Positions 63,267 through 63,500 of a stretch of DNA of 64,000 nt are shown one piece after another. Position numbers and translations under genes: made by a program. A model generated the notes under the pieces. The model saw only the letters and a list, made by a program, of their open reading frames with translations. It was not told the origin of the DNA and made no database searches. Every line of letters starts with the position of its first letter. Positions within the stretch are counted from its first letter, which is position 1. Source of the stretch: a virus (Duplodnaviria > Heunggongvirae > Uroviricota > Caudoviricetes); the IMG/VR virus record IMGVR_UViG_2850808358_000005; one strand, 5' to 3'.

Positions 63267-63423
63267 TTTTAACGTAAATGGATTGTTAAATGTATTTTGG
63301 TTGTGATATAACCAAAAAAGACCGGAATACAGAAATTCGAGTAAATTTCGGGGAATTTCGGGGAAGCATTTGTAACTAATTGATTTCAAATGCAATTAAA
63401 AAAAGACCGAATACGATTCCTGT
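63267..63423. other. prophage attL (int-proximal arm and core) at the chromosome junction
   Basis: Near-identical to 33314..33474; identity ends inside the sdsR terminator hairpin. Confidence 0.5.
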
Positions 63424-63500
63424 ATTCGGTCCAGGGAAATGGCTCTTGGGAGAGAGCCGTGCGCTAAAAGTTGGCATTAATGCAGGCTTAGTTGCCTTGC
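63398..63500 (-). ncRNA. sdsR: small RNA SdsR/RyeB (putative); 3' terminator half supplied by the prophage
   Basis: Minus strand GCAAGGCAACUAAGCCUGCAUUAAUGCC...GGACCGAAUACAGGAAUCGUAUUCGGUC plus U7; adjacent to the yebY-like gene; identification from memory of the locus. Confidence 0.45.

Follow-up and report, generated by a model that had tools for sequence, protein, structure and literature searches.

The attB site of phage lambda is intergenic, between gal and bio. Temperate phages and islands such as P4, P22 and HP1 integrate in the 3' ends of tRNA or tmRNA genes (Campbell and Williams reviews). PhiW104 of Salmonella Typhimurium DT104 uses a small RNA gene. According to a review's description of this phage (Balbontin, Figueroa-Bossi, Casadesus and Bossi 2008, J Bacteriol 190:4075, via PMC7380047), its att falls inside the final 23 bp of ryeB (sdsR) and is internal to ryeA (sraC). 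The same description has PhiW104 lysogeny replacing the 5' part of ryeA, lowering RyeA and raising RyeB, a result cited also in PMC3603311 and PMC3333887, and the ryeA/ryeB locus is known from the literature as an insertion hot spot. In Yersinia enterocolitica BT 1A, the ail prophage vB_Yen_24-YE00064 has a 27-bp att between its integrase gene and a YebY-family gene (PMC12653942, 2025).

The window analyzed here is the whole 64,000-nucleotide stretch of a caudoviral IMG/VR record (IMGVR_UViG_2850808358_000005). Near its right end, the integrase arm of a prophage meets the 3' end of sdsR. We are highly confident that this junction is the attR of a lambda-Int-type prophage integrated site-specifically into that 3' end, with consequences for RyeA and pphA that we infer from the sequence and from published K-12 data. 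The original prediction was essentially right in its interpretation, and the finding is real, well supported and already known. Both mechanism and target are already published, the design follows classic tRNA-gene integration, and there is no new mechanism here. Literature searches on yebY and pphA integration sites found no paper on this E. coli/Shigella prophage family at the site.

The locus shares with PhiW104 both the target gene and the end of it that is used. With the core at 63397..63423, its right-hand 23 bp (63401..63423) would form the final 23 nt of the transcript, provided that SdsR ends near 63401. Going by the review's description, the att and integrase of PhiW104 may be the same as those found here. 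The two cases differ in the host, which is Shigella- or EIEC-like here, in the prophage, which is Rac-like, lambdoid and carries ipaH, and in the donor and recipient SNPs used to map the crossover, which are specific to E. coli attB. The Yersinia prophage matches in att length and neighborhood and, on those grounds, may use the same sdsR 3'-end target; it differs in that no sRNA is mentioned in PMC12653942.

As in tRNA and tmRNA integration, attP copies the 3' end of a structured RNA and the gene is rebuilt on integration. The site is again a stem-loop dyad with a 7-nt loop as the likely overlap, and the target is a conserved, single-copy gene across genera. By analogy, use of the sdsR hairpin probably mirrors the use of tRNA anticodon loops or T-loops by other integrases. 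However, the target here is an Hfq-dependent sRNA and the structure is a Rho-independent terminator. The sdsR locus is also bidirectional; SdsR is rebuilt, yet its antisense partner RyeA is split. Like lambda and HK022, the system has the Int domain order, all catalytic residues (compared with lambda Int), and an adjacent excisionase gene, whereas the core sequence and the target are different. Direct repeats in the arm resemble arm-type sites and are candidates for that role. The sdsR site is a further well-resolved case of phages targeting and rebuilding structured-RNA 3' ends.

The sRNA gene had been predicted to be sdsR, next to a yebY-like gene, and both identities hold. An Rfam scan of the whole window matched SdsR_RyeB at 118.1 bits against a gathering threshold of 38 (E 2.3e-22, model positions 1-100), and alignment with K-12 sdsR gave mismatches at 63403 and 63412 and none elsewhere. 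The sdsR promoter region (63498..63564) is identical to that of K-12. The 113-aa neighboring ORF matches the YebY family in Pfam at E 6e-45, and RefSeq has the label "YebY family protein" at the yebY match in each of the listed E. coli genomes. The sRNA gene lies downstream of yebY with both on the minus strand, in keeping with the published synteny rule for sdsR (PMC3333887). The predicted coordinates and gene identities are correct far beyond chance.

It is scarcely credible that the insertion truncates or inactivates sdsR, or that the likeness at the junction is due to chance or to misassembly. Nothing speaks for this beyond its being possible a priori, apart from a 16/17 repeat in the phage arm that is itself at chance level. 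The covariance-model match is full length and the terminator is intact, which rules out truncation, and the same attL/attR/attP layout recurs in independent genomes and phage records. This integrase stands beside yebY in 228 complete E. coli genomes (~4%). The coordinates of the features at the locus are collected in Table 1.

Table 1. Features of the sdsR junction and of the two prophages in the window.
Feature	Position	Strand	Source
Integrase, prophage 1, intact, 358 aa, lambda-Int family tyrosine recombinase	32237..33313	+	Pfam
Second core copy in the attP-like junction between the tandem prophages	33444..33475		BLAST
Excisionase-like gene, prophage 2	61928..62146	+	ORF list
Integrase, prophage 2, frameshifted (ORFs 62191..62454 and 62415..63266)	62191..63266	+	ORF list
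Integrase-side phage arm of attR, in place of the ryeA promoter of E. coli and the initial ~38 nt of RyeA	63267..63396	+	Comparison with K-12
Candidate promoter into ryeA: TTGTTA (63283..63288), 18-nt spacer, TG-a-TATAAC (63304..63312)	63283..63312	+	Read from sequence
Half-core-like repeat AAAAAAGACCGGAATAC	63314..63330	+	Self-BLAST, 16/17
Three direct repeats AA(A)TTTCG(G/A)G (AATTTCGG), candidate arm-type integrase sites	63333..63363	+	Read from sequence
att common core, 27 bp, TAAAAAAAGACCGAATACGATTCCTGT	63397..63423		Four-way att comparison
Strand-exchange segment ACGATTCCTGT	63413..63423		SNP segregation, attL vs attR
sdsR terminator U-run	63403..63397	-	Terminator scan (T-run)
sdsR Rho-independent terminator hairpin, 11 pairs, 7-nt loop	63432..63404	-	Terminator scan
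sdsR (ryeB) sRNA gene, full length	63497..63398	-	Rfam RF00111
ryeA (sraC), chromosomal part, running to its own terminator	63394..63631	+	Rfam RF00101 at 63394..63538
yebY, chromosomal gene flanking sdsR	63659..64000	-	Pfam PF10709

The att core was defined by a four-way comparison of E. coli attB, free-phage attP, the attP-like junction within the window, and the attL and attR of single lysogens. The core TAAAAAAAGACCGAATACGATTCCTGT is identical in attR, in the middle junction of the window and in free-phage attP. It runs from the U-run through the 3' stem arm and loop of the sdsR terminator into the 5' arm, of which it includes the first two bases, and the predicted overlap of attachment core and terminator is thereby confirmed. 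E. coli attB matches 25 of the 27 core positions. The identity between phage and chromosome had been expected to end inside the hairpin; it is perfect up to 63423 and reaches 63428 with one mismatch, which places its end there.

In K-12, attB reads TAAAAAGAGACCGAACACGATTCCTGT followed by ATTCGG, in the context aacaga TAAAAAGAGACCGAACACGATTCCTGT ATTCGGTCCA ggg. The attP of phage pPE4 and of the middle junction reads TAAAAAAAGACCGAATACGATTCCTGT followed by TTTCGT, in the context acaat TAAAAAAAGACCGAATACGATTCCTGT TTTCGTCAAC aaac. Neither attL nor pphA was found within the window, where the left prophage runs off the start, and attL was therefore read from other genomes, namely E. coli CE0021a (a single lysogen) and GCA_009738325.1 (a 3.4-kb remnant of Shigella/EIEC type). 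In both, attL consists of the K-12 left flank, a core with G and C at the two variable positions, and TTTCGTCAAC. The attR sites of CE0021a, GCA_009738325.1, four further assemblies and the window consist of the phage arm, a core with A and T, and ATTCGGTCCA.

Two positions, 63403 and 63412, distinguish the host core from the phage core. The host bases (G/C) are in attL, the phage bases (A/T) are in attR and attP, and attR has the host A at 63424. All unoccupied E. coli sites that were sampled have G/C (K-12, ST131, O103, FDAARGOS_497 and three species-representative assemblies). Donor and recipient SNPs thus segregate as expected, with the flanks exchanged reciprocally across attP, attB, attL and attR. 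Because attL keeps the host base at both SNPs and attR combines both phage bases with the host base at 63424, strand exchange must lie within the 11 bp from 63413 to 63423. The same segregation means that the prophage supplies the 3' stem arm and the U-run, as the original prediction had it: G and C in the attL of two lysogens, A and T in attR and free-phage attP. Judged from these SNPs, phage DNA makes up the 3'-terminal part of sdsR, from at least 63412 leftwards to where the U-run ends.

A dyad, GACCGAATAC with GTATTCGGTC in attB or with GTTTTCGTC in attP, flanks the 7-nt sequence GATTCCT, an arrangement that would be expected around the 6-8 bp overlap of a lambda-type site. From dyad geometry and SNP mapping, the overlap region is likely this hairpin loop (63415..63421), and the arms of the terminator hairpin would then probably serve as inverted core-type binding sites. 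The attP bears 27 bp copied from the sdsR 3' end, reaching from the U-run past the stem's 3' arm and the loop to two bases of the 5' arm. Exchange within 63413..63423 leaves sdsR complete, with its last ~15-25 nt contributed by the phage, and the gene is rebuilt, not broken.

Two related prophages, both lambdoid and Rac-like, lie in tandem in the window and share one att site, with junctions at 33444..33475 and 63397..63428. By BLAST, 33247..33475 is 97.8% identical to 63200..63428, after which the two diverge. In the middle junction, the core is flanked by the int arm of prophage 1 and the P' arm of prophage 2. This junction does not form an sRNA gene; the whole-window Rfam scan gave no SdsR match at that position. 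Other duplicated features are RalA/RalR (31700..31879 and 61654..61832), arrays of four tRNA genes (15716..16023 and 53515..53822) and sok/hok (18254..18429 and 57024..57196).

In prophage 1, the intact integrase has the arm-binding, central and catalytic domains of the lambda type (Pfam PF09003, PF22022 and PF00589). It matches lambda Int structures at E 6.5e-73, with R212, K235, H308, R311, H333 and Y342 all identical, and it is ~41% identical to HK022 Int. The prophage 1 homolog of the excisionase-like gene matches Pfam Exc (PF07825). In prophage 2, the integrase gene is split into ORFs of 87 and 283 aa, and its DNA is 97.9% identical to the intact copy. Since this frameshifted copy is the int beside the sdsR junction, the right-hand prophage is probably fixed in place. 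This prophage is ~30 kb long and has three IS copies besides the frameshifted int; it is probably defective and locked in.

The core also occurs in phage records. Actinobacillus phage vB_Apl-pPE4 (PP818812.1), an independent record, has an integrase that is 97.5% identical, and its attP, near 46293, has a structure and core identical to those of the middle junction of the window, with closely similar flanking arms. This phage also has Rac-like recE, recT, kil and ydaT genes, and its attP bears the 3' end of an enterobacterial sdsR; its recorded host, Actinobacillus pleuropneumoniae, looks doubtful. In Salmonella phage ZC-S1_prp (integrase 74% identical), the same core directly follows int and ends at the same CCTGT boundary. 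In the Flyfo siphovirus Tbat2_3 (integrase 50% identical), the core after int has a variant loop and the same CCTGT boundary.

Comparison of the window with K-12 found no similarity left of 63397, and the same phage arm occurs in the attP of pPE4 and in the attR of CE0021a. The three direct repeats in this arm, AATTTCGG, are present in all homologous arms, including those of ZC-S1_prp and Tbat2_3, and are candidate arm-type integrase binding sites on the strength of their sequence. The half-core-like repeat AAAAAAGACCGGAATAC looks like AAAAAAGACCGAATAC, the left half of the core, with a G inserted. Its BLAST match is at chance level, but the repeat recurs at the same position in homologous prophage arms and in remnants from several genera. 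It may be a further site for integrase binding or the fossil of an older junction.

The arm also contains a promoter-like element directed into ryeA. A strict scan of 63100..63700 reported no plus-strand promoter, under a rule that needs a T at position 6 of the -10 box, where the candidate ends in C. The module, (A/T)TGTTA...TGnTATAA, is conserved in homologous prophage arms and in decayed remnants from several genera; the remnants that keep it are those of Salmonella, Citrobacter, Kluyvera and Trabulsiella. The candidate -10 box sits 40 nt further from the core than the -10 box of K-12 ryeA. SraC of Shigella and Salmonella has been described as ~35 nt longer than that of E. coli, its -10 box being shifted ~35 bp upstream (PMC3333887). 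The position of the candidate fits this longer SraC, since its -10 box lies 40 nt beyond that of K-12, and a phage at the sdsR 3' end probably explains the longer SraC of both genera.

Porins, tolC and mutS are among the targets of SdsR, a core RpoS-dependent sRNA; SdsR has been described as a toxin, with RyeA as its antisense antidote. Relative to E. coli sdsR, the rebuilt gene has two changes: a G.U pair in the terminator stem becomes A-U, and the tail UCUUUUU becomes UUUUUUU. Long uninterrupted U-tails favor intrinsic termination and Hfq binding. We had expected the A-U and G.U terminators to differ in stability, but this was dropped when both variants folded at -15.8 kcal/mol (ViennaRNA). 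The suggestion that integration may alter SdsR termination or stability has two base changes behind it; the predicted hairpin energy is unchanged, and the U-tract is what differs.

It is quite unlikely that the main effect of integration is a phage-supplied 3' end that changes the termination efficiency, 3' end, Hfq binding or stability of SdsR. In its favor are the uninterrupted U-tract and the altered stem pair, and the sdsR terminator shows substantial read-through in K-12 (PMC6610125). However, the predicted hairpin stability is the same, the A/T and G/T forms are common in other Enterobacterales, and the published cause of raised RyeB is, in the review's account, the altered 5' end of ryeA (PMC7380047). 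Among the 120 loci listed, the equivalent of 63412 is T in 92 and the equivalent of 63403 is A in 51, and A/T and G/T terminators are ordinary functional variants, being common natural forms in those species. Any effect on SdsR termination or Hfq binding would thus be limited to the U-run and is probably small; with the hairpin variants modeled as equally stable, the effect on SdsR itself may even be nil.

We predict larger effects on RyeA and pphA. That RyeA would overlap on the plus strand had been anticipated, and the Rfam match to SraC_RyeA (179.1 bits, part of it overlapping sdsR) and the ryeA terminator T-run at 63623..63629 agree with this. The description as a mere overlap falls short, in that phage DNA stands in place of the promoter and first ~38 nt. 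The K-12 left flank has no match in the window, from which both the native promoter and the native 5' end are absent. The full RF00101 match hides this loss because the Rfam model starts only at the core. K-12 RyeA is 272 nt long, and its sigma-70 promoter has a -10 box (TATGGT) that is ~45 nt to the left of the core (PMC6610125). With the prophage in place, RyeA would lose its own sigma-70 promoter and first ~38 nt, which would stay at attL, outside the window. It would be transcribed, if at all, from the promoter-like element in the phage arm and would be ~40 nt longer. In K-12, most transcription of pphA is read-through that starts at the sdsR promoter (PMC6610125). Here, pphA would be parted from that promoter by the prophage array (>60 kb), and read-through would run antisense into int instead.

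Integration could also be functionally neutral, with the sdsR terminator acting as a conserved, dyad-symmetric safe harbor and SdsR, RyeA and pphA not meaningfully changed, although we think this unlikely. The gene is rebuilt with the same predicted hairpin energy and a promoter region identical to K-12, the phage arm offers a promoter-like replacement for RyeA, and sraC is poorly conserved and has been judged non-essential for SdsR control (PMC3333887). However, PhiW104 lysogeny at the same site is described in the review as lowering RyeA and raising RyeB (PMC7380047). In addition, ryeA transcription interferes with sdsR in K-12, and pphA depends on the sdsR promoter (PMC6610125); both linkages are altered here. 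We therefore prefer site-specific integration with effects on RyeA and pphA.

A more elaborate version would have the promoter-like module of the phage arm, together with read-through from int-xis, produce transcripts antisense across sdsR. These could act as a RyeA-like antisense that resets the toxin-antitoxin-like balance of SdsR and RyeA and also pphA expression, and they could place the int-xis mRNA 3' end under the control of SdsR and RNase III. We regard this as speculative and very unlikely. If true, control of int-xis by SdsR and RNase III would be an RpoS-dependent analogue of lambda sib retroregulation and would couple excision to growth phase. The promoter-like module and the antisense geometry of int and SdsR are the only parts of the locus that might repay experiments.

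All 5426 complete E. coli genomes match the region, most of them only from 63397 rightwards. When a 141-nt probe was laid across the pphA-yebY intergenic site of K-12, 5191 of the 5426 genomes matched it unsplit. With ~4% of E. coli and many Shigella/EIEC strains carrying a prophage at the sdsR 3' end, the site matters for strain comparisons of SdsR, RyeA and pphA. Two E. coli genomes with odd match boundaries, considered as possible insertions of other phages, proved to have IS elements. In NZ_CP051158.1, ISApl1 lies 4 nt left of the att core and parts the ryeA promoter from sdsR; in NZ_AP027783.1, ISVsa5 lies at about +13 of sdsR and disrupts the sRNA.

In a scan of one genome per species, the core lies beside sdsR in at least 120 Enterobacterales species. 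Of the 120 species representatives listed, 13 carry a homologous integrase gene (48-74% identity) whose end is ~90-140 nt to the left of the core, and fragments of the integrase or remnants of the arm are present in about 10 others. The carriers include Salmonella enterica subsp. diarizonae, Citrobacter youngae, C. freundii, Kluyvera and Trabulsiella. This occurrence in multiple species indicates that the integrase family and the sdsR terminator are a long-standing pair.

The window comes from a Shigella- or EIEC-type genome, given that 7 kb of it is 100% identical to GCA_002950035.1 and that it carries ipaH and several IS copies. Some 580 nt in from the left end of prophage 2 is an IpaH-type effector gene (LRR and NEL E3 ligase by comparison with gene calls; 571 aa, 34052..35767, plus strand), and the Shigella sRNA CssrB (33923..33741, minus strand) is located between ipaH and the att core. 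The middle-junction copy of the promoter-like element, at 33351..33358 (compare 63304..63312), points towards ipaH, and the prophage 1 arm has a 1-nt deletion just past it. A 1266-bp IS3-family element is present in four copies with 99.6-99.7% identity (29693..30958; 36211..37475, in reverse; 38787..40051; 59990..61254), one of them near recT/ralR in each prophage. Prophage 2 also has two modules of C4 antisense RNA, isrK and c4-a1b1, which are P1/P7-type immunity and anti-repressor control RNAs. These modules (54639..54837 and 57899..58100) are 3 kb apart, and their pairing suggests an internal duplication or a mosaic join in this prophage.
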